Shown here: positions 41,938 to 62,985 of the stretch, piece after piece
How positions within the stretch are numbered: position 1 is the stretch's first letter
Layout: each line of letters starts with the position of its first letter
DNA from: an uncultured Gammaproteobacteria bacterium
GTDB lineage: Bacteria > Patescibacteriota > Microgenomatia > UBA8517
Length of the DNA stretch: 64,000 nt
Assembly (NCBI GenBank): GCA_964635715.1
Contig: CAZWNZ010000001.1
Location: 74,358 to 138,357 of the forward strand
Reading direction: 5' to 3'
The notes under the pieces: model-generated
Told to the model about the DNA's origin: nothing
Databases searched by the model: none
The model's input: the letters and a program-made list of their open reading frames with translations, nothing else
Position numbers and translations under genes: made by a program

Positions 41938-42013
41938 GAGTAATATTATATCAAAGAAATTATAAATTAGGAATTAGAAATTCGAAGTTAATTAAAATGG
42001 GGCTTGACGAATT

Positions 42014-42123: not shown

Positions 42124-42130
42124 ATTTTAT

Positions 42131-43740: not shown

Positions 43741-44862
43741 ATGAGAGTACAAGTACTACAAGAGAACTTAGAAAAAGCTATTGGCATAACAACAAGATTT
43801 GCCAGTGCCAAAGCACAACTTCCCATTCTTGGTAATGTACTCATATCAACCCGCAAAAGTAAAATTTATATTTCTTCAACAAATTTGGAAATTTCGGCTT
43901 CTGTTAAGATTGGTGCAAAAATTGAAGAAGATGGTGAAATTAGTATTCCTGCAAAAATTATTTCGGAATTAGTACCAAATTTACCCAAGGAAACGATTGG
44001 TCTACAATCGGAAAAGGAGCAGCTGAAGATTTCCACAAACGGCTTTACTTCAACTATTCTGGGAATGGATTCAACAGACTTTCCCAAAATTCCGAATGCT
44101 TTAAATGAGAAAAACACAATCAGTTTTTCTAAGAAGCTACTTTCTGAAAGTTTAGGTAAAGTCGTATTTTCAACTTCTACAGATGAAACACGTCCCATTT
44201 TGACAGGAGTTCTTTTTATTCTTAAAGATAATTCTTTGTCTTTAGTAGCAACTGATGGCTTTCGTCTTTCTAGAAAAAATGTTTTACTAAAGGATTTTAA
44301 AGGAGAGGAAAAATCTGTTGTAATTCCGAAAGGAATCCTGGGGGAGATAATTCGAGGTGTTTTTGAAACAGACGATATTTTGTTTGATCTTGAAGAGTCT
44401 GAAAAACAAGTTCTCTTTGAATTGGAGGATACGGTACTTACATCCAGACTTCTGGAGGGGGAGTATCCGGATTTTGAAAAGATTATTCCAAAAGAATCAA
44501 ACATAAAAGTGTTTTTAGATAAGGAGGAATTTTTAAGGGCAGTAAAATTGGCTTCGATATTTGCCAAAGAGGCTGCAAATGTTGTGAAACTGAAAATTTT
44601 GAAGGATTCCATAAAAGTTTCTGCAGAAAGCGGACAGGCGGGGAGCCAGGAAACAAAAGTCGATGCGAAAGTTGAATCCGGAATTTCGAATTTTGAATCT
44701 GGATTTGAGATTGCTTTTAACTTCCGGTATTTGGAGGATTTTATTCATTCGGTTACAGGCGAAGAATTATCTATGGAGTTTGTAAGTTCTACTTCTGCCG
44801 GGGTGTTTAAGGACACAAGCGATGAAAATTATCTTCATCTAATTATGCCGGTTAAGATGTAA
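43741..44862 (+). CDS. dnaN: DNA polymerase III beta sliding clamp
   Basis: Three-domain clamp pattern (MRVQVLQENLEKAIGITTRFAS...) directly downstream of dnaA. Confidence 0.9.
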   Translation: MRVQVLQENLEKAIGITTRFASAKAQLPILGNVLISTRKSKIYISSTNLEISASVKIGAKIEEDGEISIPAKIISELVPNLPKETIGLQSEKEQLKISTNGFTSTILGMDSTDFPKIPNALNEKNTISFSKKLLSESLGKVVFSTSTDETRPILTGVLFILKDNSLSLVATDGFRLSRKNVLLKDFKGEEKSVVIPKGILGEIIRGVFETDDILFDLEESEKQVLFELEDTVLTSRLLEGEYPDFEKIIPKESNIKVFLDKEEFLRAVKLASIFAKEAANVVKLKILKDSIKVSAESGQAGSQETKVDAKVESGISNFESGFEIAFNFRYLEDFIHSVTGEELSMEFVSSTSAGVFKDTSDENYLHLIMPVKM

Positions 44863-44868
44863 AAATTC

Positions 44869-45321
44869 TTATTTTTGTGGAACTTCATCCATCGGGGAAT
44901 TTTTAAGTATATTTGGTTTGAAATTTAGTTCTATTGGGGGAATTACTTCTCCTGTTGAAGACTTTGCTTCGATAGTCATTTTGTATGAAACTTCATATTG
45001 CCACCCCTCCATTGCTCGTACAAAGAGAGACGTGTTGTTGTCATCGGTTTCAATAATTGTGTCTGTTTGGGGATTAGTGTTAATAACGAGAGAACTGATA
45101 TCGATCGGTTTTGAAAAATAGAATTCTATAGAAGAAGTGCTTAAAAGTGAACCTGAAGAGTTATTTTCCGGAACTGATTTTATAAGTTTAAATTCTACAT
45201 ACGGGGTAGGTGTCGGTTTTTGTCTAAATCCGACGCCAGACTTAGAAAGGATCCAAACTATTGACAAGACAGATAGAACAAGAAGAATAAAAACTGGTAC
45301 AATTTTTTTGTTTTTTAGCAT
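44869..45321 (-). CDS. Small exported/anchored beta-rich protein, hypothetical (last gene of the T4SS-like operon)
   Basis: N-terminal TM/signal (IVPVFILLVLSVLSIVWIL), Ig-like-looking remainder. Confidence 0.35.
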   Translation of the reverse strand: MLKNKKIVPVFILLVLSVLSIVWILSKSGVGFRQKPTPTPYVEFKLIKSVPENNSSGSLLSTSSIEFYFSKPIDISSLVINTNPQTDTIIETDDNNTSLFVRAMEGWQYEVSYKMTIEAKSSTGEVIPPIELNFKPNILKNSPMDEVPQK

Positions 45322-45335
45322 AACTAAATTATAAC

Positions 45336-48023
45336 TTATTTGCAGAAATAGTCTTCCGGTTTAACCCAGCGACCGTTCATTTGAAACTCAATGTGTAAAT
45401 GAGTATTTGATCCTTGGTTAAAAAGAGTGGTAATCTTTTGCCCCGACGTTACTGTTTTTGGAACTATTTTACTTGCAACGTGAGTAAGGACAATTGAATA
45501 TGAACCTGTAGTATCTTTATATATAACCGAAAAACCAACTCCGTTGTTGTTGAAGCTTCCGTCATAATTCCATACTACTTCTTTTCCTAAAACTGTCGGA
45601 GCATAGACGGTATTTATTCCAGAGGGGAATACGTCGAATGCATATCCGTAATACGAGCAGGCTGGAGAGTCGCAACCTGTTTGTTGAGGTAATGAGTATC
45701 TATAAGGGATTCCTCCCATCATATTCCAATAAGAAGTACTTCCATGGCCCGTGTTGGTGGCTGGATTGTAGGAAAAATTGTTTTGATTAAGAGGTACGGC
45801 TGCCGGGACAGGGCATGAAATGGGTGGGGTCCCAAAAGTAACCGACGCGCTTGTTTCTGCTGTTGTGCCGGTTACTTCTCCCGTATCCGCTGTCACAGTA
45901 ACAGTATCTATTATTGCCGAATTTGTAAAACTGTTGTCGTAAGTTGAAGTATAGGTAAACACATATGGAAGGGATGGTGATATTGAGTCTATCGTAGTTG
46001 GAGCGTCACTAATTGGAGGACAGTTTTTATTGGCCGTACTAATTACTTTGCAGTCGTATTTAATAGATATGTTTGTAAGGGCACTTCTCTTAGCCCTGAT
46101 TGTTATTTTATAAGTAATTGTCTTCGGAAGTTCTTTGTTTGTAAAAGGTCCGGGCGGCTCCGGAGTTTTAATAATATCAATATACGGATTAGACGTTCTT
46201 CCAAAAGTACTTTCAGACACGGGGACTACATAGGCTCCGGAGTTGATTATAAAAAGAATTAAGGCAACCACAATAGGCAAAGCAAATATGGTTATTAAAA
46301 TTGGCATGCCAATGGAAGAAAAGACTGCTCCCCCCAGAGCTGTAAAAAATCCCCCTATGCTTCCACCCACTACACCAAGAGAAGAAATTCTACCGGAAGC
46401 AAAACTTGCAAGAAAACCGGTGCCCACACCTAGGGCAACCGCTCCCGCTAAACCAATAAAAGGAGCTGTAATTAAGGCAATAACGGAACCTACTATGTAA
46501 GGAGCTGCTTTCTTAACTTTACTCCAATCAATTTTACTTGCAATAAAACCAATCACTGCTCCAATGGCTGTTCCAATAACTGGAACCACACTACCAGCAG
46601 CGGCGCCGGTGCCTGCGCCAGCCGCTCCTCCTGCGGCAGTTCCGACAGCTTTTCCTGCAAATGAACCAGCCAGCTTACCTGCTGTACTTGTGACAGCTTT
46701 TTTCCCAATCTTTTTACCGGCTACAGAGACTATCTTTTTTATTCCAAAATTTATACCGGTTTTCCCTCCGATAAAATTCAAAATCGGTCCGAAACCATTT
46801 TGTACAGCAATTCTTCCGAAAAAAGTTGTCCCTTCCCACGCAACAGCAGAGGTGCCCATTCCAAAATAGGACAAAGCACCCTGAACAGGTATAGAACTGT
46901 ATGTTTTGGCCAGTAAACTATCAACAGGTAATTTATCAATTAAACCATCCAGTCGCACAGAGGCCCTCCGTAAAATACTTGTTTTTATTTTGTCTATACC
47001 GAATTCTTTTACTTCCCCAAGGAAAGAACCTTGGTTATTAAGCAGGTCCAGATTGGTTTGAGGAATCTGGGACAAATTGTACTCATGGAAATCTGTCTGC
47101 GGTGAGTCAGAAAAGGTTATTTGTAGTTTATCGATCTCTTTGGGTCCAAAAACCACATTGGTAAAATTTTCTCCAAAAGTGGAAACAATCAGTTCACGAT
47201 TGAAAGAATACTTGGCAAAGTATTGATCCGAATTCTCTAAAGCAACGTTAATAAAATTTTGTCGGAGATTGATATCTGGTAATGTTTTTGTAATTAAGTC
47301 TTCATTTGTGGCAAATGCACTAGTAATAACAGTTTCTTCGGCCAGTGATTTGCCTTGGAGATTTTTTACCGTTTCGTATGCAGCCTCTTTGGCCAGAATG
47401 CGCATTTCTTCTTGTGTGGTGTTTTGCGGATTAGACAAAGAAATTTTGTTTTCGATTGTCTCGGTTATTTGGTCGACCAATCTTTTGGGGTCTGCTTTTG
47501 CGGCCTCTTTAAGTACGTCAATTTGTTTTGCTTGCTCATCGGATATTGGTGGGATTTCAGTACCCTCAACTTTTACATATGTCTTCGTGTTTTTTAGTTG
47601 ATCAAAAAGTTCTTGCCTTCTTTTAATTGAGGCCTCGACTTCTTTTTGAGCTTTTTGGATGGTTTCTTTAATCTCCGCCTCGCGTTTCTGTTGCTCCATT
47701 TCTTGGAGCTCACGCGTTTCTTTGTCGGGTAAATTGGACTCAACTGGTTTTTCTTCGTTTTGAGATCCTGAGACAATCCCTACCAAGGCTTTTTGAGCAT
47801 CATGAACTGTTAGCAATCTTTTTTGGGCGTCTTTTGCACTCAAATCTATTTGTACACCCGTCAGATTTTTAATAAAATTTACAAAAGATTGTCGATTTTT
47901 CCAATTGTATTCTCCAGAATAAAATGGCGTATCGGATGAATATATGGCGTCTTCCGGAAAAAAATGTCCAAAGGCCAACATTAAATCGTCCAGATTTTTT
48001 TGTGTAATACTAATTTTTGCCAT
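45336..48023 (-). CDS. Giant bifunctional protein: cytoplasmic coiled-coil N-domain, Gly/Ala-rich multi-TM block, extracellular M23 peptidase domain (candidate T4SS cell-wall hydrolase, VirB1/PrgK-type role)
   Basis: E/K-rich coiled coil; about 6 TM helices in a GAGTGAAAG-rich region (aa ~470-600); C-terminal M23 motifs (...AFDVFP... and SNTHLHIEFQMNG); 2 nt downstream of VirB4. Confidence 0.6.
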   Translation of the reverse strand: MAKISITQKNLDDLMLAFGHFFPEDAIYSSDTPFYSGEYNWKNRQSFVNFIKNLTGVQIDLSAKDAQKRLLTVHDAQKALVGIVSGSQNEEKPVESNLPDKETRELQEMEQQKREAEIKETIQKAQKEVEASIKRRQELFDQLKNTKTYVKVEGTEIPPISDEQAKQIDVLKEAAKADPKRLVDQITETIENKISLSNPQNTTQEEMRILAKEAAYETVKNLQGKSLAEETVITSAFATNEDLITKTLPDINLRQNFINVALENSDQYFAKYSFNRELIVSTFGENFTNVVFGPKEIDKLQITFSDSPQTDFHEYNLSQIPQTNLDLLNNQGSFLGEVKEFGIDKIKTSILRRASVRLDGLIDKLPVDSLLAKTYSSIPVQGALSYFGMGTSAVAWEGTTFFGRIAVQNGFGPILNFIGGKTGINFGIKKIVSVAGKKIGKKAVTSTAGKLAGSFAGKAVGTAAGGAAGAGTGAAAGSVVPVIGTAIGAVIGFIASKIDWSKVKKAAPYIVGSVIALITAPFIGLAGAVALGVGTGFLASFASGRISSLGVVGGSIGGFFTALGGAVFSSIGMPILITIFALPIVVALILFIINSGAYVVPVSESTFGRTSNPYIDIIKTPEPPGPFTNKELPKTITYKITIRAKRSALTNISIKYDCKVISTANKNCPPISDAPTTIDSISPSLPYVFTYTSTYDNSFTNSAIIDTVTVTADTGEVTGTTAETSASVTFGTPPISCPVPAAVPLNQNNFSYNPATNTGHGSTSYWNMMGGIPYRYSLPQQTGCDSPACSYYGYAFDVFPSGINTVYAPTVLGKEVVWNYDGSFNNNGVGFSVIYKDTTGSYSIVLTHVASKIVPKTVTSGQKITTLFNQGSNTHLHIEFQMNGRWVKPEDYFCK

Positions 48024-48025: not shown

Positions 48026-49894
48026 TTATTTGTCAGCGTATGGATTGGTGTTTACCTTCACAACTTCCTGTGGTTTAGTTGTAATTAATCTGTTTTCTTC
48101 TTCCGAAGCAACAATTCTAATTGGGGCATGGTGTGGCCCTGCAAAGAAAATGCCTTCTCCAACATTGGCTGCAAGAAGAAGCCTTTTTTCTCCTTGGGAC
48201 AAATAGAAGACCTCGCCAATCTTATCAATTGCGGCAGGGGATTGCTTTAAGAGAAGCTGCATGGCGCTATTTGTGACAATAGCCTTTCCAATGTCCTGTC
48301 CGAGGAAGTCCTCGACGTCCTGAGTGATTGTAGTGAGTCCTAGATAGTATTTACGGGCCCTTTTAACAACACTCCATAAAAATTGGGCAGTATCGGGATA
48401 TCTCATCATGTGCCAAGCTTCATCTACAATCAAAATTCTTCTCTTGAGATTCTTTTTAACCCTAGTCCAAATATAGTCGAGAATAATAAACATGGCGATT
48501 GGGCGAATGGCGTCCTGCATATCTTTAACAGAAAACACAGTGAAGGGATTGATAATGTTAATGTTAGTTTGTTGATCGAAAATTCCTACAAAGCTTCCTC
48601 TAACAAATTTTTCAAGTCTGGCGGCAAGATCCAGAGCTTCAGGTGATTCCATGCCGATCAGGGTTTTGTAAAGATCTTCCATGAGAGGGGGTTCTTTGCC
48701 TTGGGTCTCGGGATCCATAGTAATTCCTTTGGCCCGATAAGTCATTATTAAGGCACGGTCAAGCAATGCCTCCTGAATTGGGGTGATTGCCCCCATAATC
48801 ACTTTCATTAGGGAATGAAGAGAAAGTATTTTTAGTCCAAGCTGATTTTCACCCTCTTCACGGATTTGGGACAGATCAAAAGGATTAATTTTTGCCTGGG
48901 AATTGTAGGAGAATGATATATATTCACCACCCACCGCTTCGGCTATAGATTTATATTCGCTTTCAGGATCAATAACTATTGTTTCGACCCCTGTCATGAG
49001 CGACCTTAGCGCCTCAAGTTTAACAAAATAGGATTTACCGGCTCCCGATGTTGCAAAAATTGTCATGTTGGCATTTTGCAGGCTAAACCTATCAAAAATA
49101 ATAAAAGATTCGTTTTGAGAATTCATTCCATAGAGAACACCTCTGTCACTTGAAAGTTCGGTTGAGGTTAGGGGAAAAGTTGTGGCAACCGATGTGGTAT
49201 CCATATTTCTGGTGATGTTAAGGCGGTCGATGCCAAACGGGGCAGTTGCCAAAAACCCCTCTGACATATTTAGCATGGCATGTTTGCTGACAATCATAAG
49301 GGATCCAAGTTGAGATTCGACCTGTTTAGTTATTTGATTCAGTTCCTCAACGGAATTTGCAGGGATTGTAATGTAAAAACCAAATTCGTAAAATCTTTCA
49401 ATTCCTTTAACTAATTGTTCCTGCAGCGCCTGAGCATCCTCTAATTTTGCCTGTGTCACCGGATCAACCAGTTTTCCCCGTTCGATATCTGTGGTCATTT
49501 CAGCTTCCATTTCGGCGATTTTTCGCCTTAGATCATCAAGAACGCTCTTTCCGTCGACTGGATAGATATAAAAAGAAATATCCAAAGAGGTATCAATATT
49601 GACTACGGGTTCGAGCCACCCCGGGGCGACAAATCTTGGATATCCACCGACAAAAATTGTCCTGAAATAGACATCGTTGACTTTGATATAGTCAAAATCA
49701 ACCTCAACCGATTGGGGTGAAATTACATCAAGTAGGTTCATTCCCTGATTCATAACCGAATAGGCGGCTGAAACAACCGGAGGCTTAACCTCCGTATTAG
49801 AATCTTGAATCTTGAATCTTGAATCTTGAGACGTGGAGCCTAAATCCTGATCTGCAGGTTTTATATTTGGTGTTTTTGTAATATTGTTTTGCAT
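48026..49894 (-). CDS. VirB4/TrbE/CagE-family T4SS ATPase, C-terminal ~620 aa (middle plus ATPase domains)
   Basis: Walker A IFATSGAGKSYFVKLE, Walker B ILIVDEAWHMM (the hhhhDEAW typical of VirB4), mid-domain KVNDVYFRTIFVGGYPRFVAPGWL. Confidence 0.8.
   Translation of the reverse strand: MQNNITKTPNIKPADQDLGSTSQDSRFKIQDSNTEVKPPVVSAAYSVMNQGMNLLDVISPQSVEVDFDYIKVNDVYFRTIFVGGYPRFVAPGWLEPVVNIDTSLDISFYIYPVDGKSVLDDLRRKIAEMEAEMTTDIERGKLVDPVTQAKLEDAQALQEQLVKGIERFYEFGFYITIPANSVEELNQITKQVESQLGSLMIVSKHAMLNMSEGFLATAPFGIDRLNITRNMDTTSVATTFPLTSTELSSDRGVLYGMNSQNESFIIFDRFSLQNANMTIFATSGAGKSYFVKLEALRSLMTGVETIVIDPESEYKSIAEAVGGEYISFSYNSQAKINPFDLSQIREEGENQLGLKILSLHSLMKVIMGAITPIQEALLDRALIMTYRAKGITMDPETQGKEPPLMEDLYKTLIGMESPEALDLAARLEKFVRGSFVGIFDQQTNINIINPFTVFSVKDMQDAIRPIAMFIILDYIWTRVKKNLKRRILIVDEAWHMMRYPDTAQFLWSVVKRARKYYLGLTTITQDVEDFLGQDIGKAIVTNSAMQLLLKQSPAAIDKIGEVFYLSQGEKRLLLAANVGEGIFFAGPHHAPIRIVASEEENRLITTKPQEVVKVNTNPYADK
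49800..49827. repeat. Four perfect GAATCTT heptamers at the 5' end of the VirB4 ATPase ORF
   Basis: gaatcttgaatcttgaatcttgaatctt; encodes QDSRFKIQDS at codons ~23-32. Confidence 0.7.
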
Positions 49895-49930: not shown

Positions 49931-50648
49931 GTTTGTCCAATATAACTTCCGGTTCTTTTTTAACAGCCGGCTTCTCGGGATTGTAAATGGAATAGTAAAG
50001 ATTGATAAGCTCAGGTGTGGTAAGTTGTTTGAATTTCAGTCCCAATCTCCCTGCCTGGCGGATCAAGTGGTCGCGTCTTGGATAAAGGGTGATTTTTGCT
50101 TTCTTAATAACGTACGATTTCGGAAATGGCAGGGGTCCTCCTCCTTTGGTAATCGCGGCTACAGATTTGGCAATACCAAGTTCAAGGGGGGATAAATAAA
50201 GGATAACAAAAAATCTTTTACCCAAAACATTTTTCTTTTTAACGGATTCACTGATAAAGTTCCGGTAGTTTTGCATCAAGTTGGAGAGTAGCGGTTGGGT
50301 CATTTTTTTTGCCTGTTCATCGAGAAAATTCAGATAGGATGAAATATCTTTTTTCTGTGTCAGAACTACAATCTGTGTAGAAAAAGTCAGAGAGTTTATC
50401 ATGGCTGCATAGGCTGCAATTACCGCCTCTTGTTCTTTTTCTGAAAGGAGACCAAAGTTTAAAGAAGTAGATTCCATAATGAGTGAGGCGCCGCCATCTT
50501 TATAGATAACAATGTCGTTTGTTATATCCGCAACCGGCACGAAATCCTGTGTTGTGGCCGTAAGCGGTTTGTCGGGAACACTCAGGAAAGGAATCTTAAG
50601 TTTAGAATTTTGAATCTTGAATTTTGAATCTTGAATTTTACTATTCAT
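49914..50648 (-). CDS. VirB4 N-terminal-domain-like protein (separate ORF; apparent split of the VirB4 gene)
   Basis: DITNDIVIYKDGGASLIMESTSLNFGLLSEKEQEAVIAAYAAMINSL resembles the N-terminal region of monoderm-type VirB4 ATPases (tentative, by eye); 244 + 622 aa equals the usual VirB4 length; 5' end carries the heptamer-encoded MNSKIQDSKFKIQNSKLKIP. Confidence 0.5.
   Translation of the reverse strand: MNSKIQDSKFKIQNSKLKIPFLSVPDKPLTATTQDFVPVADITNDIVIYKDGGASLIMESTSLNFGLLSEKEQEAVIAAYAAMINSLTFSTQIVVLTQKKDISSYLNFLDEQAKKMTQPLLSNLMQNYRNFISESVKKKNVLGKRFFVILYLSPLELGIAKSVAAITKGGGPLPFPKSYVIKKAKITLYPRRDHLIRQAGRLGLKFKQLTTPELINLYYSIYNPEKPAVKKEPEVILDKQESSS
50591..50639. repeat. Seven-unit heptamer array (GAATCTT/GAATTTT alternating) at the 5' end of the VirB4-N ORF
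   Basis: gaatcttaagtttagaattttgaatcttgaattttgaatcttgaatttt. Confidence 0.65.
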
Positions 50649-51016
50649 TTTATTAGTTTTGATTTTTTAATCAGCCCATTTAATATTTTCAAAGTAATTA
50701 CGGATTGATCATATAAATGATCGAACTCCTTTTGTCCAATAAATTTGACATCTCGGGATATGATTAGTTGGTTTTGCAATTCGGTAATAGACCCTGCTGA
50801 GATTCTAAAGAACTGCAATTTTTCTTTATAGGAATATCTACTAAATCCTTCAGCAATATTGCTTGTTATTGAAACTGCACAACGCCTCATTTGATTTGTA
50901 ATTCCAAACATCTCAGATTTCGGAAAATTACCAGTCACTTCGTAGATGCCAATAACAAGTTGATGCCCTTCTTTCCAGGCATTTAAATCAGTAAAATTAA
51001 TAATTTTATTTTCCAT
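50645..51016 (-). CDS. Four-helix-bundle protein (TIGR02436 / 23S rRNA-IVS protein / Avd family)
   Basis: ITNQMRRCAVSITSNIAEGFSRYSYKEKLQFFRISAGSITELQNQLIISRD is a textbook family signature; ATGA-coupled to VirB4-N and abutting the stop of the upstream gene. Confidence 0.8.
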   Translation of the reverse strand: MENKIINFTDLNAWKEGHQLVIGIYEVTGNFPKSEMFGITNQMRRCAVSITSNIAEGFSRYSYKEKLQFFRISAGSITELQNQLIISRDVKFIGQKEFDHLYDQSVITLKILNGLIKKSKLIK

Positions 51017-52108
51017 TTAATTTAATGGTGTTCCACTAGATTCGAGATTCAAGATACTAGATTCTACTTGTAGTCTTTTTCCTGTAACAAGTATTGGTGG
51101 AATTATCTCTCCCTTAGCCTCAAAATTGACGGGCATAAATTGATAACCGTCCTTTTCGCTGATAATGCTGTATTTCCCGTTTTCGAGAGGTGTGACTGCC
51201 ATAAAATGGCCAAGCTTGTTGCTTCTGAGAGCCCTTATTGGTCTTCCATATTCATCTCGTATTTCGATTATTGCGCTTTCTATTATTCTTCTGGCCTCAT
51301 CGACAACTTGTCCGACAATAACATTTGGACTGGTTGGGGGATTGGGCGGTGTGGCATCGATCGAGAATATCGCCTCTTTTGTAGACACTATTTCCTCACC
51401 GACGACTGTCGGATTGACTTGCTGAGTTTGGAATTGTGCTGTTTGGTCAATGATTTTTGGTTTTTCCTCCACAACAAGATGGGAGGTCTGTGGTGAAACA
51501 ATTTTAACAGGGTTGCTTACCGGAATTTCAAGTTTTTTAGGTTCAGTAGAAGCTACAGGTTGGTTGGTTGGTTGGGCTACTGTCGTAGCCAGTGGTGTTT
51601 TAATACCCGCAAGTATGCCGGCTAGTTTGGAAAAAAAACCTTGTTCAGCAACCTCGAGTTTGGCAAGTGGTCCTTGCGGAGACCTGGAGCTGTCAAGATA
51701 GTTTTTAACAGCCGCATCCTGATTTTGTGTTTGAGAATTTGGGATGTTTGAGGACGGACTTTCGTCCTGAAAAAATTTCCGGATACCTGTTGTTTTTTTC
51801 CAGTGGAAAGTAGTAGGAGAATAAATTGCTTTAAAGAAAGCCAGGATCCACTGTTCCAGTGGGCGTTCCTCAAGAGGAACAAAAGCCATAGCAGCTCCAA
51901 GAATGACAAATATAATTATAAAAGGCCATTTAATAATTCCCGGAAGGGGGGTTGCGTAAAATATCAAACCAACTAATACGCCCCCCGCAAGTTCAAAGAA
52001 TTGCTTAAGAGTCATATCTCCAACCAATTTGAATTGGTAAGAACTTACGTTTTGTGGTATCGGATGTTGTTCCATGCTCTTGAGCAGGGCGAAAGAGCAC
52101 AAAAGCAA
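51017..52108 (-). CDS. VirB3/PrgI-like two-TM membrane protein with a long Q/P/T-rich extension and C-terminal beta domain (tentative)
   Basis: TM hairpin FFELAGGVLVGLIFYATPLPGIIKWPFIIIFVILGAAMAFVPLEERP in the position VirB3 usually occupies upstream of VirB4. Confidence 0.4.
   Translation of the reverse strand: MLLCSFALLKSMEQHPIPQNVSSYQFKLVGDMTLKQFFELAGGVLVGLIFYATPLPGIIKWPFIIIFVILGAAMAFVPLEERPLEQWILAFFKAIYSPTTFHWKKTTGIRKFFQDESPSSNIPNSQTQNQDAAVKNYLDSSRSPQGPLAKLEVAEQGFFSKLAGILAGIKTPLATTVAQPTNQPVASTEPKKLEIPVSNPVKIVSPQTSHLVVEEKPKIIDQTAQFQTQQVNPTVVGEEIVSTKEAIFSIDATPPNPPTSPNVIVGQVVDEARRIIESAIIEIRDEYGRPIRALRSNKLGHFMAVTPLENGKYSIISEKDGYQFMPVNFEAKGEIIPPILVTGKRLQVESSILNLESSGTPLN
51038..51065. repeat. 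Heptamer array (AGATTCG AGATTCA AGATACT AGATTCT), opposite orientation to the array at 50591..50639
   Basis: agattcgagattcaagatactagattct; lies in the 3' end of the upstream CDS. Confidence 0.55.
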
Positions 52109-52193
52109 AGCTTTTTGAGTCTTACCCTATACTTTTAAGACTATCCCGTGAAGGGGGTAATTCAAGGGGAAACCTTTTTCACAAGGACTAAAC

Positions 52194-52784
52194 CTAGTTG
52201 GCACTACAACAACAGCAACCCACATCACTATCATGATCGCTGCTACTATAGCTAGAATTGCTGTCATACACTTTTCTAGAAGGATCTATGTATGCCTTGG
52301 CCAACACCTCTTCAAGTTTATTAGCATTTTGCCAGTCTTGTTTTTGTAGACAAACCAATGCCTGTGCGTTAATGGATATGGATTCGTTGTCGGGAGCAAT
52401 TTGAATCTCTATAGATGAATAGTCATAACTACCCGTATGGTTTGAATCAACCTTTCCGTCGGCCCCAATTTTAAAAGATGTTCCCCAAACAAGTGCGATT
52501 CTACCTGTAGATGCAACATATTTTAGTTGATGGCTTTTAACATTACCATCAAGCATCTCTTTATCTATTCTTTCAAGGCAGTGAAGGATATTACTACTTC
52601 CGACAATTTCATTATTTTTAGAAATTACAAATTGAAGTCTTCTTTCCTCAGCTTCCTTTTCAAGCCTCTTCTTTTCTTCGTTAGCCAACCTTTCTTTTTC
52701 GAGGACCTCCTGACGGGCTTTTTCCTGTCTGGCAGCCTCCTCAGCTCTTTCCTGTTGAATACGCTTTATTATTTCAATTGGCAT
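52194..52784 (-). CDS. Hypothetical protein with coiled-coil N-terminus and Ser/Cys-rich C-terminal tail; candidate YcaO/SagB substrate
   Basis: Ends ...YDSNSSYSSSDHDSDVGCCCCSAN; lies immediately downstream of the SagB-type dehydrogenase in the same operon. Confidence 0.4.
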   Translation of the reverse strand: MPIEIIKRIQQERAEEAARQEKARQEVLEKERLANEEKKRLEKEAEERRLQFVISKNNEIVGSSNILHCLERIDKEMLDGNVKSHQLKYVASTGRIALVWGTSFKIGADGKVDSNHTGSYDYSSIEIQIAPDNESISINAQALVCLQKQDWQNANKLEEVLAKAYIDPSRKVYDSNSSYSSSDHDSDVGCCCCSAN

Positions 52785-52818
52785 ATTTGGCTGTATTATA
52801 TGTCTACAACAATAAAAG

Positions 52819-53451
52819 TCAAGCTCCTATAGCCAAATAGTATATTGGATATTCCTCACGGGGATTTATGTCGAGGAGTTTAATTAGCGGCTTTTCGTTT
52901 AACATTCCAATTGCACAACATCCGATTCCAAGACTCGTTGACAGTAAATATATATTTTGCGCAACATGCCCAGCTTCAATATAAGGAAAATACATCCCTC
53001 TTTCTTTATATTTATCTGTGGTTCTATGAAATACAGAAGTAAGAATTATCAAAACAGAAGCTTTTTTGAACCATAACTGTTTTGTCATCCAGATCTGATC
53101 AATATCCTTGGTTGCCATTTTTCTGTGTAGAATTTCTAACCCATGACTAATTGGATTGTAGTGATATAAACCTTGCCTAATATTTCCGCCTTTCATGACA
53201 AGTATATAAGCCTCGAGCGGATATTTTGCGCCAGCAGATGGATAAACACGAAAGGGGTTTTTTTCTTCATAAGGATTTTGTCTAATTGCCGCTAGACTGT
53301 GGTATAGAATATCAGACAAAGTCTTTTTGCCCACCGTTTTTCCTGTAAAGTTCCTAGATGATGTTCTACTTTTTATGATTTTTCTTAATTCTCCGGCCGT
53401 ATTTGTTCGGGGGAGTGGTATTTTTTCTAACCTGGAATAAGTTTTGTGCAT
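52819..53451 (-). CDS. SagB-type (nitroreductase-fold, FMN) dehydrogenase of azoline/azole RiPP pathways
   Basis: RTSSRNF...YPSAGAKYPLEAYILV...GLYHYNP...KYKERGMYFPYIEAGHVAQNIYLLSTSLGIGCCAIG matches the TIGR03605 SagB-type pattern. Confidence 0.7.
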   Translation of the reverse strand: MHKTYSRLEKIPLPRTNTAGELRKIIKSRTSSRNFTGKTVGKKTLSDILYHSLAAIRQNPYEEKNPFRVYPSAGAKYPLEAYILVMKGGNIRQGLYHYNPISHGLEILHRKMATKDIDQIWMTKQLWFKKASVLIILTSVFHRTTDKYKERGMYFPYIEAGHVAQNIYLLSTSLGIGCCAIGMLNEKPLIKLLDINPREEYPIYYLAIGA

Positions 53452-53453
53452 AC

Positions 53454-54812
53454 TTAAAAAGGATGAATTTTTGATAGCTCATTAACATTCATATTTAGAT
53501 TTACATCAATATTCCTATTTTTTGGAACTTCAGTGAGTCTTTTTATGCCAAAATATGGATATCTTTCGTCGTGCCATAGAGGTACCATTTCTGGGACAAG
53601 AACCTTGACAACTTTCAAACACACTTTTTCAATTTCAGGAGTCGTCATGTCGATATAATATGCGGTGCACCCAATGTTTTTAAGCTTTGAAAGAGTGTAC
53701 TTAAGATATTCTTCATCTGTCTTGAACATTGTTGTTTTAGTCAACGAAACTTGCTTGGAGCTCTTAATAAAATTTTCGACCTGCCCTATCATATGCGGAG
53801 CTGACCACTCACGATGTTTCTGCCAATTAAACCATTCAAACGATCCTTTTGGGGGCGGAGGGTTGTTCACATAAAAATATTTTTTTCTATTTGTTACATA
53901 TCTTCTGAGCGCCTCAATCGCCGATATCTTTAACACATTAGCTGTGTCTAGGCCGGCCCCCAGGCCACAACACACCGCAGGGCCCACGCCCGTTCTGTCT
54001 ACAAGAAGGCAAACAACTGAAAATATTCCAGTGTCTAGCGTGGTATCAAAAAAATAAATCTCAAAATTATATCTGGCGAATTTTTCTACAAGTTCTTTTA
54101 ATTCTTTATTTGACTTGTCTAGCGAAATCAAGCGTTTTGGTATTTCTGGAAGAAACGAAATTACATACCCATCCCTCTCAATAATTTCACAAAGCCCCCT
54201 ATAAACAGCAAAATCAATGTTTGGACCGCAGGCGGCCCCCGTACTTATAGGCATTCGTATAACTGGTTCATTGTGTTGTTTGTGGGAATAATTTGCGTAT
54301 GCTAAAGAGGCAGGTATTAGTTTTTTCTCATGACTTATTAGATTATGCCCCATCAGCCAATTAATCTGCGAGTTTCTGGATATATTAAACTTTTTGTACT
54401 TTTTTGTGGACAGCTGTTTGGGTGTAAAAGGAACAAAAACTGTTGGATCAATGGCATTATTTTTTAACTGTATATATGATCCATGTACAAACTTTTCCGG
54501 AGTTTCGTTCAAGATACAATAATGTTCTATAGCTTCGGTTATTGAACGTTCGATGGATGTTCTCTCGTTGTCGCTTCCACCATAACCATAGGCAGTGTTA
54601 ACTTTGTTTCCTTTTGAATATCTTTCACAGGAATATATAAAAAACTGGGGAATGTCTGGCCATGTTTTACTTTGAGTTAGTTGTCCAAGTATTTTATGGG
54701 ATTGCAGGTCATTGTGGATTTTTTTAAAACGAGAAGACAATGGTAATTTTGAAAACGGAAATGTCCTTACTGCAGGGTCATGGGGCAGAGCGATTCGAGC
54801 ACCGTTTTTCAC
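53454..54812 (-). CDS. YcaO-domain protein (ATP-dependent cyclodehydratase family)
   Basis: GYGGSDNERTSIERSITEAIEHY (G-GxG-S-ERS-EA-ER motif) and PISTGAACGPNIDFAVYRGLCEIIERDG (PxSxGxAxG...E..ERD) are YcaO ATP-binding signatures. Confidence 0.8.
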   Translation of the reverse strand: MKNGARIALPHDPAVRTFPFSKLPLSSRFKKIHNDLQSHKILGQLTQSKTWPDIPQFFIYSCERYSKGNKVNTAYGYGGSDNERTSIERSITEAIEHYCILNETPEKFVHGSYIQLKNNAIDPTVFVPFTPKQLSTKKYKKFNISRNSQINWLMGHNLISHEKKLIPASLAYANYSHKQHNEPVIRMPISTGAACGPNIDFAVYRGLCEIIERDGYVISFLPEIPKRLISLDKSNKELKELVEKFARYNFEIYFFDTTLDTGIFSVVCLLVDRTGVGPAVCCGLGAGLDTANVLKISAIEALRRYVTNRKKYFYVNNPPPPKGSFEWFNWQKHREWSAPHMIGQVENFIKSSKQVSLTKTTMFKTDEEYLKYTLSKLKNIGCTAYYIDMTTPEIEKVCLKVVKVLVPEMVPLWHDERYPYFGIKRLTEVPKNRNIDVNLNMNVNELSKIHPF

Positions 54813-54886: not shown

Positions 54887-57622
54887 ATGCCAGAAACATT
54901 AGGAAGACCGGGCATTCCTTCACAATTGGAATCAAAGGGATTCTATCATACACCACACAAAGACGATGGTTCTGGCTTGCCCGAAATTGATCCAGCAGAC
55001 GCAGCTTTGAATGATGCAATAAATCGACAGATTGGAAGAGAATTTGAGGTCAATGCAGAGATGGCAACAAATCCGGAAACTTCAGCTGATTTTTTTGAGG
55101 GTCTTAGGGGAGTTGAAGAATTACAAGAGGATGGGAACGTTCCGAAGGAAGCTCAAGATCGTTGGACTCCGTCAAGACTTCATTCGGCAATGTATTACAA
55201 TGCCAAGGCACTTGGTGTTTCTATAAATGAGCTTCTTAGGAAAGGAAGAATTGAGCCAACAAAGATTACTGAGCTCATAGATGGAAAGGCGGTAGTCACT
55301 GATGGATACAAACCAACTAAACCCAAGTTTGCATCCTTCGCAATATCATATGAGCCATTTAAGGCTGGAAATGTCAAATTGGGTAATGGCTTTAATCGTG
55401 ACGAAATTGATTATAAATATGATTTTGGAATACCAACAGAAAATTCAAATAAGAGGCTTGAGATGGCTCTTGCAGTCAAGAAGGGTATAACTGAATATCA
55501 AGCACGCTTGATCCTGGGTGAACATATTTCCGTAAGGACCAGTCTGAGATTTCGCGACTCTTTAGAAGACTTGGTGGGTATTATGCATAGTGGTAGTGTT
55601 ACTTATTTTAAGGGTGATCATTTGAAGGGATTGTTTAATTTGCCTAGCGTGCGGGAATTAGAAGGCGGTATAAAACTGTCCGATACAAATAAAGAACAAG
55701 TTAGGACGAGAGTAGAAGAAGAAAACGCAAAACAACTTTCAAAAGAAAACAGACCACTCACAGATGAACAAAGAGAAATTGTCACGGCATCAATTAGAGA
55801 CCCTCTAATATCTAAAGAATTTGAAAACAGACACGAATTTGGTGATCAAGTTGAAGAGGCAATTTTTCTTAATATGATAATGTTAAATTCCTCAGGAAAA
55901 ACCAGAATGCAGGAGTTTCTCAAAAGACCAGGAGTAATTAAATTAATGTCGAGGTTGGCAGATAAGGATGTCAGTTTACAAAATTTATTAAACAAGAAAG
56001 ATTTAGAATTGATGACAAATGAGCAGGTGATGCTGAGCAAGGCTAAACAGTGGCAACTTGCACACATTGGGGATGTCGATAATTGGATAGATGACAAAGA
56101 TAGATATTTGGAAAACACCACAGTCAGAATGAAAAATGGAGTTGAGGTAAAAGAGGGTGGAACAAAGGTAAGAGTGAAAGCAACTTGGAGGGAAGAATCA
56201 GAAATAGGTCTCCGTAAAGAGTTAACTAAATGGGCAAATATTTCCGCCTGGGGCGGAAACCCTTCTGAGTTTAGTGCAGATAAAGAAATTCGATTTATTG
56301 AAGGTGCTATTGGAGATGTTGTTGGAAGCAAGGAAGCTGCTTGGCTTGCGGCAACATTTTTGAGATCAATCGGTGCATATGCCTCCGAGGGATATGCGGT
56401 TCTTCCACCAAAGGATGGGGGAAGCGTGAAAGGTAGATTTTTATTACCATTAGGAGAAGGTCGATATATAAGCGGGGACGATACAGGAAAATTTTATGCA
56501 AATCTGTTTAACTTAAAAGAAGGGCTAAAAGGTCGCGCATCTGGCCTGAAAGATATGATAGGTAGAGTTCCCGACATGGCAATGAACCTTTTTGATTGGG
56601 CTGGAGTTGAGGTGGGTAATGCAGACGGCACCGACCCCGAATATCCTCTTAATTGGGATGGAACAATGCAAAAAAGATCTGTATGGGATGCCTGGCTTGG
56701 GACAGCGGAGCAGCCATTGAGAGATATATTAACTGGTGGAGATGTGGTGGAAGTTGCTAAGATAGATGGGAATATTCTTAACAAACTTAGTGATGAAGAT
56801 AAGGAAACGGTTACAGCTAACAAAATGGGATTTGTTGAAGTCAAAAGAAAAACAAATAACAGTGGTAAGGAAGAAGTGGTTTATAAAGTTCTAGATTTAG
56901 ATACAAATGACAGAATCTCTTCGGGGAGAGTTTTAATAAAAGGAATTAAAAACAAACACGGGCTGCCGCTTATCGATAAAAACAATCAAGAAAAAATGTT
57001 TTTGTGGGTTGCTGAGGAAAAAGGTAAAAGATTAGGAGATCTGAATTTCAAAACACTTGAAAGAGAATTCCATGGAACTTTCACAATTATGCAGTGGCTT
57101 ATGGGGAACGGGGAGGGACCAACAGGCGTTTTTGTTGATGCTCTAAAGACAAATTTCAGGCCTGAGGATTTTGAAATGAATGAGCTCAAAAAGAAAATTA
57201 AGTATATCGGAATTGTCATGAATCCGGTAGTTCTAACAAAAGGTTCTCAACACCTATATAAAGATGCGGGCGGGGCTGCTGGAGTAGTCCAAAATGTATT
57301 TTTTGATAATTTAATGAATGCAAGAAAACGCAGCAATTGGTTTGCTCAGAATATTTTAGGCAACTTTGTAAAACTATTTAATCCTGATGGTGGAGTAACA
57401 ACCACCTCCTCAGCAATGCTTGTTGATGCGTATATTACTGAAGCAAAAAAGAAATCTGGCATGGAATCAGTATCCGACCTGGTCAAACATTATATAGACG
57501 GAAATGGGGATATGAGAACGATAGCTGGAGAAAAAACTAACACTGTTGTTAAGCAAGTTATCGAAAGTGCGAGTCTTACAGATAAAAATATTGGCATGAT
57601 TAGGGGTAAAAATACCTATTAA
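54887..57622 (+). CDS. Large (911 aa) hydrophilic orphan protein, no signal peptide or TM; GC-richer than its surroundings
   Basis: Long uninterrupted ORF, divergent from the YcaO operon; TATAAT-like box at ~54868; no recognisable motifs by eye. Confidence 0.5.
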   Translation: MPETLGRPGIPSQLESKGFYHTPHKDDGSGLPEIDPADAALNDAINRQIGREFEVNAEMATNPETSADFFEGLRGVEELQEDGNVPKEAQDRWTPSRLHSAMYYNAKALGVSINELLRKGRIEPTKITELIDGKAVVTDGYKPTKPKFASFAISYEPFKAGNVKLGNGFNRDEIDYKYDFGIPTENSNKRLEMALAVKKGITEYQARLILGEHISVRTSLRFRDSLEDLVGIMHSGSVTYFKGDHLKGLFNLPSVRELEGGIKLSDTNKEQVRTRVEEENAKQLSKENRPLTDEQREIVTASIRDPLISKEFENRHEFGDQVEEAIFLNMIMLNSSGKTRMQEFLKRPGVIKLMSRLADKDVSLQNLLNKKDLELMTNEQVMLSKAKQWQLAHIGDVDNWIDDKDRYLENTTVRMKNGVEVKEGGTKVRVKATWREESEIGLRKELTKWANISAWGGNPSEFSADKEIRFIEGAIGDVVGSKEAAWLAATFLRSIGAYASEGYAVLPPKDGGSVKGRFLLPLGEGRYISGDDTGKFYANLFNLKEGLKGRASGLKDMIGRVPDMAMNLFDWAGVEVGNADGTDPEYPLNWDGTMQKRSVWDAWLGTAEQPLRDILTGGDVVEVAKIDGNILNKLSDEDKETVTANKMGFVEVKRKTNNSGKEEVVYKVLDLDTNDRISSGRVLIKGIKNKHGLPLIDKNNQEKMFLWVAEEKGKRLGDLNFKTLEREFHGTFTIMQWLMGNGEGPTGVFVDALKTNFRPEDFEMNELKKKIKYIGIVMNPVVLTKGSQHLYKDAGGAAGVVQNVFFDNLMNARKRSNWFAQNILGNFVKLFNPDGGVTTTSSAMLVDAYITEAKKKSGMESVSDLVKHYIDGNGDMRTIAGEKTNTVVKQVIESASLTDKNIGMIRGKNTY

Positions 57623-57636: not shown

Positions 57637-59511
57637 TTAAGTACCACCCTCAACTTTGGGTTTTTTGTTTTTCAAAGCTTCCTTTACCCTGGTTGTCCAG
57701 TTGGCAAGTTTGTCTTCCAGAGCCACCTTTCTGGCAGTTTCTAAATATGGAGCCCCTGTTTGTCCCCAGGCCCACTTGGCTGGTCCAAATGCCTCCCCAA
57801 TTGCACTACCATAAGCAAACGGCTTACCTGTAATGAACCCTTGGACAATTTCAGTGGCCTTGGGAATTAAAGTAAAAACAACGAAACTTACTGCCATAAA
57901 AATCAATCCAACAACCAAGGAATTATTACTCAGACCCAAAAGAGGAAGTTGTACGGAGCTGGATAACGCTTGGTTGGTTGTTCCCAAAATGGCATCTGCA
58001 ATACTTGATCCAGTAATTAGTCTCAAAAGTCCTGCCCCAAAACCGTTTGGGAAAGCATTTTCGATCCCTAAGAGAAGAAAAATGTATGCCAACAAAAATA
58101 AAACTCCAGTAATTACAAAAACAGCAAGAGACGAAACAAAGCTTTTTAGCCACGAAGCAAAACCTAAATTAGAAATAATTATACCAGCTGTTATTTGAAG
58201 CGGAGCGGCTATTGTTAATAGAAATATTTGGGCACAAGCTTTGGTGAGTTTCCATACAATTTTAATAGAGGTGACAAGTGTCATAATAGTAATTATTATT
58301 AGCAAAATAATGTAAACAATCACGCCGACTGAGAGTATGTCTCCAAATCCTTTAAGAACGTCTTTAATGTAAATAGCTAGGCCAAATGAAAAATATTTTG
58401 AAAATTGAGTCAAATAATTGGCGACTAAGGCAAACACACCTTTTCCGTCTGGACCGTTAGTTAGCCAGCTGAATACATAAGCAGCGCTAGTATCTCCATA
58501 TTCCGATCCTGGAACAGCTTTGACGATTGGGGCAGCAAAAATACTAATCAATCCTATTACGACATACATGAGATCGATTAGAAATCCAGCTATTGCATAC
58601 GAAAAAGTTACCAGAACTAAGGCAATCAATATTTTAGGGATGGCTGATTGAATGGTGATTACAACTTGTGGTGATATTTTAACTCTGAACATTACCATGA
58701 ACGACAAAACAATGGCGGCAATCACAAAAAGAATGTAAGCCATGTTTCGCACAGCGACCCACATATTTTGGACTACTTCTAAAAACTGAAAACCGACACC
58801 CATATCGTTTGTTTGCGCTTTTACACTTTTAACAGGTTGAAGTTTTTGAAAAACACCCTTTGTATAAGAAATTCCTGAAAAAGGGCGATCGTCGGCAAAA
58901 ACTGCTGCTAATAAAGGAGTATTGGCATGATCCGAACCTGCAATTATATTGTTTTTAATTTTCAAAAAAGATTCAGAATTGGAAACGTCCTCCAGTATAC
59001 ACGTATCTTCAGTTCCACCATTTAATAAACATTGGATAGCCGACACAGAACCCTCACCTGATGTTGAGTTTATAATAAAGCTGTAAATACTATAAAATAT
59101 CCACTGAACCTGTGCTGCAGTATATCTTTCTCCGAAAATCTCATTGGGGTTGGAGTTGTCATATACTTTACTTGACCATTCCTGAAAAGATTGGTTGTAC
59201 CAAGTTCCGGATGAAGCCGTTGTTGATGATGTTGTTGTAGAGTCACCACTGACACACGCTACATCTGTCGCGCTTTGACAAGATTCTTTATCAGTTATGG
59301 CAGTGCAATAATCGGAGTCGACCTCATAACCATCATTACAATCGGCATATGATTCTGCTTCCGCCCTACATGAAGTTAAGTTCCACTTACATTCAAAAGT
59401 GTTGGTTGCCGCTTGTATTTTGGAAACGGGTGCGGCAATGAAATAAAACAAGCCAAAGATAAAAAAAGATGCGAGCAGTTTTTTCATTTGATTTATCCTT
59501 AATCTTATCAA
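57637..59511 (-). CDS. VirB6/TrbL-like polytopic T4SS membrane protein with Cys-containing extracellular N-domain
   Basis: Signal peptide (MKKLLASFFIFGLFYFIAAPVSKIQA from 59487), 6 or more TM helices, hydrophilic C-terminus; located between the pilin array and the VirB3/VirB4 genes. Confidence 0.45.
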   Translation of the reverse strand: MIRLRINQMKKLLASFFIFGLFYFIAAPVSKIQAATNTFECKWNLTSCRAEAESYADCNDGYEVDSDYCTAITDKESCQSATDVACVSGDSTTTSSTTASSGTWYNQSFQEWSSKVYDNSNPNEIFGERYTAAQVQWIFYSIYSFIINSTSGEGSVSAIQCLLNGGTEDTCILEDVSNSESFLKIKNNIIAGSDHANTPLLAAVFADDRPFSGISYTKGVFQKLQPVKSVKAQTNDMGVGFQFLEVVQNMWVAVRNMAYILFVIAAIVLSFMVMFRVKISPQVVITIQSAIPKILIALVLVTFSYAIAGFLIDLMYVVIGLISIFAAPIVKAVPGSEYGDTSAAYVFSWLTNGPDGKGVFALVANYLTQFSKYFSFGLAIYIKDVLKGFGDILSVGVIVYIILLIIITIMTLVTSIKIVWKLTKACAQIFLLTIAAPLQITAGIIISNLGFASWLKSFVSSLAVFVITGVLFLLAYIFLLLGIENAFPNGFGAGLLRLITGSSIADAILGTTNQALSSSVQLPLLGLSNNSLVVGLIFMAVSFVVFTLIPKATEIVQGFITGKPFAYGSAIGEAFGPAKWAWGQTGAPYLETARKVALEDKLANWTTRVKEALKNKKPKVEGGT

Positions 59512-59537
59512 ACCAATGCAAAAAATGTTAGTAGGTT

Positions 59538-61949: not shown

Positions 61950-61973
61950 GACAATTCATTATAACAGTAGAAG

Positions 61974-62270
61974 TTAATTGGGGAGTACGACGTTAAAATC
62001 GGTAACATTTGCTCCGGTCAGATTCTTTATAAGTAAAAGAATTAAATAAGAGACAAGGATAATAACAAGCCCTGTAATCGCAGAAGTTAATGTTTTTTTG
62101 GCTCCCTCCGCAGCTTTCGGGTCTCCTCCTGATGTAATAAATTTAAAGCCACTAATTATTAGAAGAAAGAACAGAACTATTCCTGCCAAACCTAACGCAT
62201 AGCCAATTATGTTTTTAAAAACATCTCCCAGGTCGGCGATTGTAGCAATAGAATCACTAGCCATAAGCAC
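61974..62270 (-). CDS. VirB2/TrbC-like T4SS pilin, paralog 1
   Basis: Two hydrophobic helices flanking ITSGGDPKAAEGAKKTLTSAITGL. Confidence 0.55.
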   Translation of the reverse strand: MLMASDSIATIADLGDVFKNIIGYALGLAGIVLFFLLIISGFKFITSGGDPKAAEGAKKTLTSAITGLVIILVSYLILLLIKNLTGANVTDFNVVLPN

Positions 62271-62307
62271 ATTCTAAACTAAAAAAAGTTAGCGGGCAAT
62301 AAGACGG

Positions 62308-62643: not shown

Positions 62644-62656
62644 TTGTATACAAGTA

Positions 62657-62983: not shown

Positions 62984-62985
62984 AT

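Follow-up and report, generated by a model that had tools for sequence, protein, structure and literature searches.

We analyzed a 64-kb stretch of DNA from an ultrasmall bacterium (contig CAZWNZ010000001.1, hereafter the window) in which three consecutive genes encode a YcaO cyclodehydratase, a SagB-type dehydrogenase, and a 196-aa protein that carries a run of cysteines at its C terminus. Our results support, with a probability that we put at roughly 0.7, that the partner-less YcaO-SagB pair makes thiazoles on the Cys tail of the 196-aa protein, a scaffold derived from a type IV secretion system (T4SS), that of Patescibacteria, the candidate phyla radiation (CPR). The elements concerned are the following.

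53454 to 54812, minus strand: YcaO cyclodehydratase of 452 aa, a single domain with neither a fused E1-like domain nor a fused RRE (the recognition element for RiPPs, which are peptides made by the ribosome and modified after translation); PF02624, TIGR03604, and AlphaFold2 (AF2) model searched with Foldseek
52819 to 53451, minus strand: SagB-type flavin mononucleotide (FMN)-dependent azoline dehydrogenase of 210 aa, minimal, with a nitroreductase fold; TIGR03605 and PF00881
52795 to 52822, minus strand: promoter-like element TTGACT-16 nt-TATAAT; consensus match, 11 of 12
52194 to 52784, minus strand: 196-aa scaffold/substrate protein of an unannotated CPR family; family search and AF2 model
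52197 to 52250, minus strand: Ser/Asp-rich linker and predicted core of the scaffold protein, YSSSDHDSDVG-CCCC-SAN, with the Cys codons at 52206 to 52217

A sequence-only reading of this DNA had described three co-oriented open reading frames (ORFs). We verified their coordinates: all three lie on the minus strand in the order YcaO, SagB, scaffold, SagB starting 2 nt past the YcaO stop and the scaffold ORF following SagB after a gap of 34 nt.

Cys-tailed scaffold proteins occur with YcaO and SagB

The scaffold protein ends in SSYSSSDHDSDVGCCCCSAN (GCCCCSAN), where C190 to C193 form the Cys cluster. A first search retrieved three homologs, 40 to 53% identical to the window protein, in which the MPIEIIKR start and the GCCCCS end are invariant. 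GCCCCS is likewise unchanged in the 4 closest homologs. A word-indexed profile search gave only 4 matches, swamped by the charged low-complexity N terminus, and an exhaustive HMMER search was used instead. It defined a family of 170 cluster representatives, 107 of them at E ≤ 1e-10 and nearly all 170 to 220 aa long. Among 145 representatives, 53 had at least two Cys in the last 12 residues (ECC[CHNS]x, GCCC(C), or CECCCEC), and 80 had none there. The linker that precedes the end of the tail contains 25% Ser in Cys-tailed members versus 7% in no-Cys members. Since GCCCCS is invariant at 40 to 53% identity and the Cys cluster recurs in a good third of these representatives, the Cys tail is not a product of chance.

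We compared the tail class with the presence of the enzymes at related loci (designated by L numbers). A scan of a genome collection with the single YcaO gave no match, an alignment-based YcaO scan gave 14 loci, and a metagenome scan with a narrow N-terminal subgroup of the scaffold family gave 4. A Cys-tailed member had YcaO-SagB immediately upstream in 11 of 11 distinct loci (the window, L001, L004, L005, L006, L007, L011, L012, L013, L020, and L030). In contrast, neither enzyme gene was present at the no-Cys loci with at least 4 kb of upstream sequence (0/5; L023, L026, L028, L029, and L033). Going from substrate to enzyme, the Cys-tailed loci found independently of YcaO (the window, L001, L004, and L030) had YcaO-SagB in 4/4 cases versus 0/5 for the no-Cys loci (Fisher estimate, ∼0.008). 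Going from enzyme to substrate, the loci found through YcaO (L005, L006, L007, L011, L012, L013, and L020) had a Cys-tailed member right after SagB in 7/7 cases, against a family-wide background of 53/145 (37%). No scaffold-family member was found near the distant YcaOs, which come from DPANN archaea and one Patescibacteria metagenome-assembled genome (MAG) and end in PHPF[LM]. YcaO, SagB, and the scaffold gene are the only genes common to the 11 trio loci, whose neighborhoods otherwise differ (T4SS, phosphoglycerate kinase/glyceraldehyde-3-phosphate dehydrogenase [PGK/GAPDH], SmpB, and others). This coupling bears out the proposal of the sequence-only reading that the Cys tail is the probable substrate. 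Two of the outcomes that it had named as contrary, failure of the profile models and orthologous trio loci without a Cys/Ser tail, were looked for, and neither was encountered.

Two trio loci have additional genes. In L030, a radical-SAM/SPASM gene comes after three Cys-tailed paralogs in tandem, all ending in nearly the same NCECCCEC tail (5448-9077), and in L011 a radical-SAM/SPASM gene directly follows the Cys-tailed gene, whose tail is GCCCETCCS (8004-10413). We considered and rejected that these enzymes represent one conserved third maturase; they are 21.5% identical, which makes independent recruitment probable, and the window contains neither of them. Glu or Thr stands between Cys in these tails. 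The enzymes may add thioether-type cross-links. The trio of L013 (contig CAZLVB010000022.1) is typical, with a YcaO 39% identical to that of the window and a tail ending in GGECCHS. The contig, which is labeled "uncultured Gammaproteobacteria" and carries a ComEC-type competence gene nearby (5709-6998), is probably mis-binned Patescibacteria.

The enzymes resemble azoline-forming and azoline-oxidizing proteins

The YcaO assignment of the sequence-only reading held, with a match to PF02624 of 173.8 bits (cutoff, 25.7) over profile positions 12 to 324 of 325. Residues E93 and E96 (EAxEHY) and E209, E212, and R213 (CEIIERD), which we take to be ATP/Mg ligands by analogy with E. coli YcaO and LynD, are invariant among 19 YcaO orthologs, and these acidic motifs align with EAIERY and EIVERD of MusD and TruD. 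A profile of the 19 orthologs matched MusD, TruD, and LynD at 1e-27 to 1e-29 versus 1.7e-14 for the thioamide-type MJ1094. The AF2 model (predicted local distance difference test [pLDDT] score, 85) had LynD as its top Foldseek match; the YcaO domain of LynD could be aligned to about 435 of its 452 residues. A Pro-rich C-terminal motif of the PxPxP type marks azoline-forming cyclodehydratases; all 19 orthologs terminate in ..[HYL]PF, and those of the distant clade terminate in PHPF[LM].

The N-terminal 77 residues of YcaO were inspected for an RRE. Residues 1 to 21 are disordered, the remainder belongs to the YcaO core, and neither the AF2 model nor Foldseek revealed an extra winged-helix domain. 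In agreement with the sequence-only reading, no E1-like (SagC/McbB) or Ocin-ThiF partner and no TfuA were found in the 64-kb window or among the annotated neighbors of the trio loci. The same search space contained no leader protease, C39 peptidase, or ABC exporter.

The SagB-type protein matched TIGR03605 with 122.8 bits (cutoff, 78.4), so that its assignment in the sequence-only reading stands, and it also matched PF00881. Its relatives of solved structure are the thiazoline oxidase CyaGox, BmdC, and McbC. K147-Y148 (RTTDKY) is invariant in 11 orthologs and aligns with WKY of CyaGox; judging from the alignment ranges, it would correspond by position to Lys201-Tyr202, the catalytic pair of McbC (PMC6395948). 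L007 (9220-9949) has its SagB ortholog as two ORFs of 133 and 123 aa that overlap, owing either to a frameshift that made it a pseudogene or to faulty assembly; its YcaO and ECCHGG-tailed substrate genes are intact.

The scaffold protein is folded and its tails vary

The sequence-only reading had taken most of the 196-aa protein for a ∼170-aa coiled-coil leader, which the AF2 model (pLDDT, 86.7) contradicts. The model comprises a 62-residue N-terminal helix (residues 2 to 63), a compact alpha/beta domain (residues ∼66 to 173; helix, five-strand sheet, helix), and a disordered tail (residues 179 to 196; pLDDT < 50). The protein matched no Pfam or NCBIfam model at E ≤ 0.01, no model was common to 50 family members, and searches of NCBIfam and Pfam gave no match to an NHLP or Nif11 leader model. 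No signal peptide or transmembrane segment was obvious by eye, and the N terminus is highly charged, so the protein is probably cytoplasmic. The scaffold domain is equally well conserved in members without the enzymes and without Cys, which indicates that it has a function of its own.

Members without Cys have recurring ends, namely, DDGVHGQDSGR, GD[IL]GGGR, GWSIN/GWS/GWF, WHGSGPTN (GSGPTN), and DGGNC (for example, in L023 at 5186-5710, L026 at 7001-7585, and L024 at 536-1656). This recurrence suggests that the extreme C terminus is functionally important even without YcaO. No candidate enzyme for the modification of these motifs was identified. Tandem no-Cys paralogs with differing tails lie directly upstream of the PrgI-like gene in L024 (536-1069 and 1072-1656) and L032 (3-581 and 603-1307). 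In the window, a very hydrophobic 46-aa ORF (52127-52267, minus strand; MTAILAIVAAIMIVMWVAVVVVP...) overlaps the tail-coding region. We judged it spurious because it is out of frame with the conserved coding region, a by-product of the run of Ser/Asp/Cys codons.

The scaffold gene heads the T4SS operon of Patescibacteria

Wherever the sequence downstream of a no-Cys family member was available, which was the case in six loci (L023, L026, L027, L028, L029, and L032), this member lay directly upstream of PrgI/VirB3-like, TrsD-like, and VirB4 genes. A PrgI-like ortholog follows the family gene in L001, L005, L026 to L029, and L032. L029 reproduces the synteny of the window exactly, minus YcaO and SagB: a homolog of the divergent 911-aa protein (37% identity, same divergent position beside the family gene), the family gene, PrgI, TrsD-like, and VirB4. 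It is thus the scaffold family that opens the T4SS operon of Patescibacteria, and the link to the T4SS is deeper than the sequence-only reading had proposed. L005 (10811-11659) and L023 (5766-6614) each have a 282-aa ORF without family assignment between the family gene and the PrgI-like gene; the window has no such ORF. The T4SS genes and other neighbors of the trio in the window are the following.

51017 to 52108, minus strand: PrgI/VirB3-like T4SS protein with a C-terminal extension, next gene downstream of the scaffold gene; PF12666, 32.6 bits
48026 to 51016, minus strand: core T4SS operon after the PrgI-like gene, made up of the next three genes
50645 to 51016, minus strand: four-helix-bundle protein; TIGR02436/PF05635
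49914 to 50648, minus strand: TrsD/TraC-like protein; NF041427 TrsD
48026 to 49894, minus strand: VirB4 ATPase; NF045971 VirB4-like, 375.7 bits (cutoff, 325)
54887 to 57622, plus strand: divergent 911-aa protein, a conserved locus neighbor without Pfam or NCBIfam match
57637 to 63866, minus strand: block made up of the next three entries
57637 to 59511, minus strand: VirB6-like polytopic membrane protein of 624 aa; assigned by topology and synteny only
59538 to 61949, minus strand: 803-aa protein; syntenic homologs
61974 to 63866, minus strand: array of four VirB2-like pilins; PF18895

The sequence-only reading had placed VirB3-like, four-helix-bundle, VirB4, and M23 hydrolase genes on the strand of the trio, with pilin and VirB6 genes across from it. 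These assignments were reproduced, the M23 match being weak (it lies in a large downstream protein on the same strand as the T4SS operon). The pilin ORFs at 61974-62270 and 62308-62763 score above the PF18895 cutoff, and those at 62986-63354 and 63351-63866 score below it. Both the 624-aa and the 803-aa protein have homologs in synteny in L005, L023, L026, and L029. The T4SS operon is followed by dnaN, dnaA, rnpA, and yidC (41372-48023, with dnaN/dnaA at 42131-44862), which places it at the replication origin; L001 has the same origin-proximal arrangement. The remainder of the window contains housekeeping genes. Close relatives come from MAGs of "Candidatus Shapirobacteria," Curtissbacteria, Microgenomates, and the "Patescibacteria group," and the window is assigned to the CPR/Microgenomates on the strength of these names.

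With 363 aa, the PrgI/VirB3-like protein is much bigger than a classical VirB3, and its long C-terminal extension includes a weak match to a CarboxypepD_reg-like beta-sandwich. The four-helix-bundle gene, of the "23S rRNA intervening-sequence protein" or bAvd-like family (TIGR02436), is flanked in the window by the PrgI-like gene and the TrsD-like gene. L023 (6763-7143) and L032 (2463-2868) also possess it, L001, L005, and L026 to L029 lack it, and it therefore looks like a variable insertion. The VirB4 ortholog of L026 (9833-13498) has 1,221 aa, about twice the usual 600, and its aligned part is ∼84% identical to VirB4 of the window; the extra length could be an intein or a fusion.

The best match to a sigma-70-like consensus between 47.5 and 55.5 kb of the window is the putative promoter TTGACT-16-TATAAT (11/12), whose -35 box overlaps the SagB stop codon and whose -10 box ends 10 nt before the scaffold ATG. 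The scaffold mRNA may be near-leaderless. A TATAAT-like -10 box 8 to 15 nt from the ATG of the family gene, often accompanied by a TTGAC -35 box, recurs in loci with and without YcaO/SagB. This recurrence fits a family gene that heads its own transcription unit, YcaO-SagB having been inserted upstream of its promoter. No terminator-like site lies between the scaffold gene and the PrgI-like gene. The promoter-like element between SagB and the scaffold gene means that simple cotranscription of the trio is not a given. The distance of 85 nt that had been reported from the scaffold ORF to the PrgI-like ORF applies to the listed TTG start of the latter, which may be wrong; from the first ATG, 33 nt further downstream, it is 118 nt.

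Proposed mechanism of tail modification

We propose the following scheme. Ancestrally, the gene of the Patescibacteria-specific scaffold family would have opened the T4SS operon, with the PrgI/VirB3-like, TrsD-like, and VirB4 genes directly downstream of it. The tail varies by lineage. In some members it would have become a Ser-rich linker ending in 2 to 6 cysteines, and a two-gene module of a single-domain YcaO and a minimal SagB would have been recruited immediately upstream of the scaffold gene's own promoter. As YcaO has neither an RRE nor an E1-like partner, we infer that it binds the folded scaffold domain directly. With ATP, it would cyclodehydrate C190 to C193 and possibly S194 to thiazolines and an oxazoline, and SagB, with FMN and K147/Y148, would oxidize these azolines to azoles, with a shift of -20 Da per residue and -80 to -100 Da in total. 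This would yield either a protein of ∼21 kDa that has a rigid hydrophobic polythiazole C terminus or a released short polyazole peptide. In the window, the modified protein would be made together with the secretion machinery, since the module occupies the ancestral T4SS position; elsewhere the trio would form a cassette complete in itself, in some cases accompanied by paralogs and a radical-SAM maturase, in the manner of a RiPP cluster.

Several observations weigh against this scheme. The match of YcaO to TIGR03604 (SagD family) spans positions 1 to 376 of 377 and is, at 213.7 bits, marginally below the cutoff of 219.25. To our knowledge, all characterized azoline-forming YcaOs use an RRE-bearing partner or fused domain; both are absent here, so that the activity of YcaO on the scaffold is assumed. 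The informative loci number 16 and were partly ascertained through YcaO. In a rough and noisy neighbor-joining tree, the Cys-tailed members clustered, with 23 state changes versus 43 for shuffles; they were not monophyletic, and a single origin of the Cys tails was set aside, as the tree is too noisy to decide it. The T4SS linkage emphasized by the sequence-only reading is real but not obligatory: three of the 11 trios lie inside the T4SS operon (the window, L001, and L005) and L007 lies near T4SS pieces, but the other seven have no T4SS genes in their flanks (for example, L006 with PGK/GAPDH and L011 with SmpB). Finally, the connection of the scaffold family to the T4SS is positional only.

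The foremost alternative is a conventional RiPP cluster for a linear azole-containing peptide (LAP) or thiazole/oxazole-modified microcin (TOMM). The 196-aa protein would then be a very long leader with a core from which a cleaved short polyazole is exported as a bacteriocin or cytolysin, and the adjacency to the T4SS would be a leftover. The architecture of L030, with its three tandem NCECCCEC paralogs and radical-SAM/SPASM enzyme, and that of L011 point in this direction, as do the seven trios away from T4SS genes and the strong promoter-like element that the substrate gene has of its own; RiPP precursors often have a strong promoter of their own. The Gly followed by contiguous Cys also resembles the core of SagA, with five contiguous Cys at its start (PMC4513790), and structured NHLP leaders offer a precedent (PMC12455567). 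Set against these points, neither the window nor the annotated neighbors of the trio loci contained the leader protease, C39 peptidase, or ABC exporter that such a cluster calls for, the family tails showed no conserved cleavage motif ahead of the Cys cluster, and the released core would have merely ∼5 to 8 residues. The conservation of the scaffold domain in members that lack both the enzymes and the Cys likewise speaks for a function other than that of a leader. A classical LAP/TOMM precursor has ∼50 to 100 aa and an unstructured leader and comes with a protease and/or an exporter, whereas here we found 196 aa, a folded domain, and no protease or exporter. We therefore consider a conventional cluster possible but rather unlikely. 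On the narrower question of cleavage, the architectures of L030 and L011 and the mobility of the trio argue for it, and the protease and exporter that were not found and the conservation of the scaffold independently of the enzymes argue against it.

That the Cys cluster binds a metal or is S-acylated, with YcaO and SagB acting on another substrate, seems to us very improbable. Slightly more remote still is a YcaO that makes thioamides or amidines, or works as an ATP-dependent peptidase, and makes no azolines. The thioamide and amidine classes typically have YcaOs of a single domain without a partner, and the PDB entry of MusD, the best sequence match, describes a YcaO with the activity of an ATP-dependent peptidase, but there is no TfuA in the window, the heterocyclase E values are ∼13 to 15 orders of magnitude better than that of MJ1094, the invariably adjacent SagB with its Lys-Tyr pair makes sense only if azolines are made, and a strict coupling to Cys is to be expected if thiazolines are formed.

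Thiazole formation on the scaffold tail by YcaO and SagB remains the reading that we favor. The more specific proposal that the full-length protein keeps its polythiazole tail and that it works with the T4SS is improbable. A retained tail could serve as a signal or an anchor, rigid and hydrophobic, at the C terminus, or as a warhead that attacks membranes, similar to streptolysin S (SLS), delivered to the host cell during epibiotic attachment. Altogether, the observation made in the sequence-only reading is confirmed, and its first interpretation is partly supported.

Comparison with known systems

YcaO-nitroreductase clusters are already known in the CPR, where 110 YcaO "LAP" clusters were counted in 93 genomes (among them 31 of Microgenomates and 51 of Parcubacteria), 89 of the clusters with an adjacent nitroreductase (Sharrar et al. 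2020, mBio, PMC7298704). Azole machinery is therefore not unexpected in these genomes, contrary to the sequence-only reading. The clusters share the enzyme pair and the phyla with our locus, which the same tools would call a LAP cluster, but no ∼190-aa folded substrate family, coupling of Cys tails to enzymes, or T4SS link is described there (PMC7298704). The example presented in that study has a short 84-aa precursor and a proposed peptidase (PMC7298704) and may belong to the other YcaO clade, which ends in PHPF[LM]. A YcaO of that clade in L008 has a C39-like neighbor.

The closest mechanistic analogue is the NHLP system, in which the precursor MprE has a structured 81-aa leader and is processed by the YcaO MprC, which contains an RRE, and the oxidase MprD (PMC12455567); it is a precedent for structured leaders with azoline-forming YcaOs. 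As in our proposal, the leaders of NHLP/Nif11 systems are folded domains derived from proteins, C-terminal Cys are converted to thiazoles by a YcaO and a flavin oxidase, and several precursor paralogs occur, as in L030. In contrast, the scaffold of the window has ∼175 aa and an unrelated sequence, its YcaO has no RRE, and its family is widespread as a T4SS-operon gene without any modifying enzyme.

SLS-like precursors have ∼50 aa and a core whose N-terminal region consists of 9 to 10 contiguous heterocyclizable residues, Cys, Ser, or Thr (PMC4513790). The Gly with contiguous Cys at the start of the core and the SagB- and SagD-type enzymes of SagA/SagBCD systems are shared with the window. Unlike the window, in which we found no SagC, SagE, or ABC genes, SLS systems need SagC, a protease, and an exporter, and the window protein has only five contiguous residues (CCCCS) at the extreme C terminus of 196 aa. 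LynD, TruD, and MusD on the one hand and CyaGox on the other are the closest solved relatives of the window YcaO and SagB in sequence and fold, but LynD, TruD, and MusD have ∼780 aa with fused E1-like and RRE domains, whereas the window enzyme is a bare 452-aa YcaO domain.

The secretion genes of the window agree with the MPF-FATA-like T4SS of Patescibacteria (PMC12102498), with VirB4, TrsD-like, PrgI/VirB3-like, and VirB6-like proteins and VirB2-like pilins beside dnaA/dnaN. The origin-proximal placement of this locus is also reported there. Neither the main text of that paper nor two supplementary files searched as text mention the scaffold family, YcaO, or a nitroreductase.

Implications for Patescibacteria

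The scaffold family, its T4SS origin, and the coupling of its tails to the enzymes appear undescribed: none of the family, its place as the opening gene of the T4SS operon, or the coupling of tail class and enzymes was found in the literature searched, which included PMC12102498 and two supplementary files of it. Our analysis defines a widespread unannotated family, with 170 cluster representatives, that heads the T4SS operon of Patescibacteria, and shows it to be a carrier of swappable C-terminal tails. It also offers a probable substrate for one clade, at the least, of the CPR YcaO-nitroreductase clusters that had already been counted.

YcaO/SagB chemistry is known almost entirely from short peptides recognized through RRE domains. 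Here, a bare YcaO without partner, of a kind best known from small peptide antibiotics, would act on the tail of a folded protein of ∼21 kDa, and a substrate of protein size would be unusual. If this holds, it would widen the protein/protein engagement model of RiPP biosynthesis and provide a minimal two-enzyme system for making thiazoles on protein C termini.

The Patescibacteria T4SS is reported to be essential for epibiotic growth (summarized in PMC12102498). If the tail were retained and had a role in the T4SS, the scaffold would be the first protein of a secretion system to carry an azole as a post-translational modification. VHGQDSGR, GD[IL]GGGR, GWSIN, and the other ends of no-Cys members would then be alternative versions of the same functional C-terminal module.

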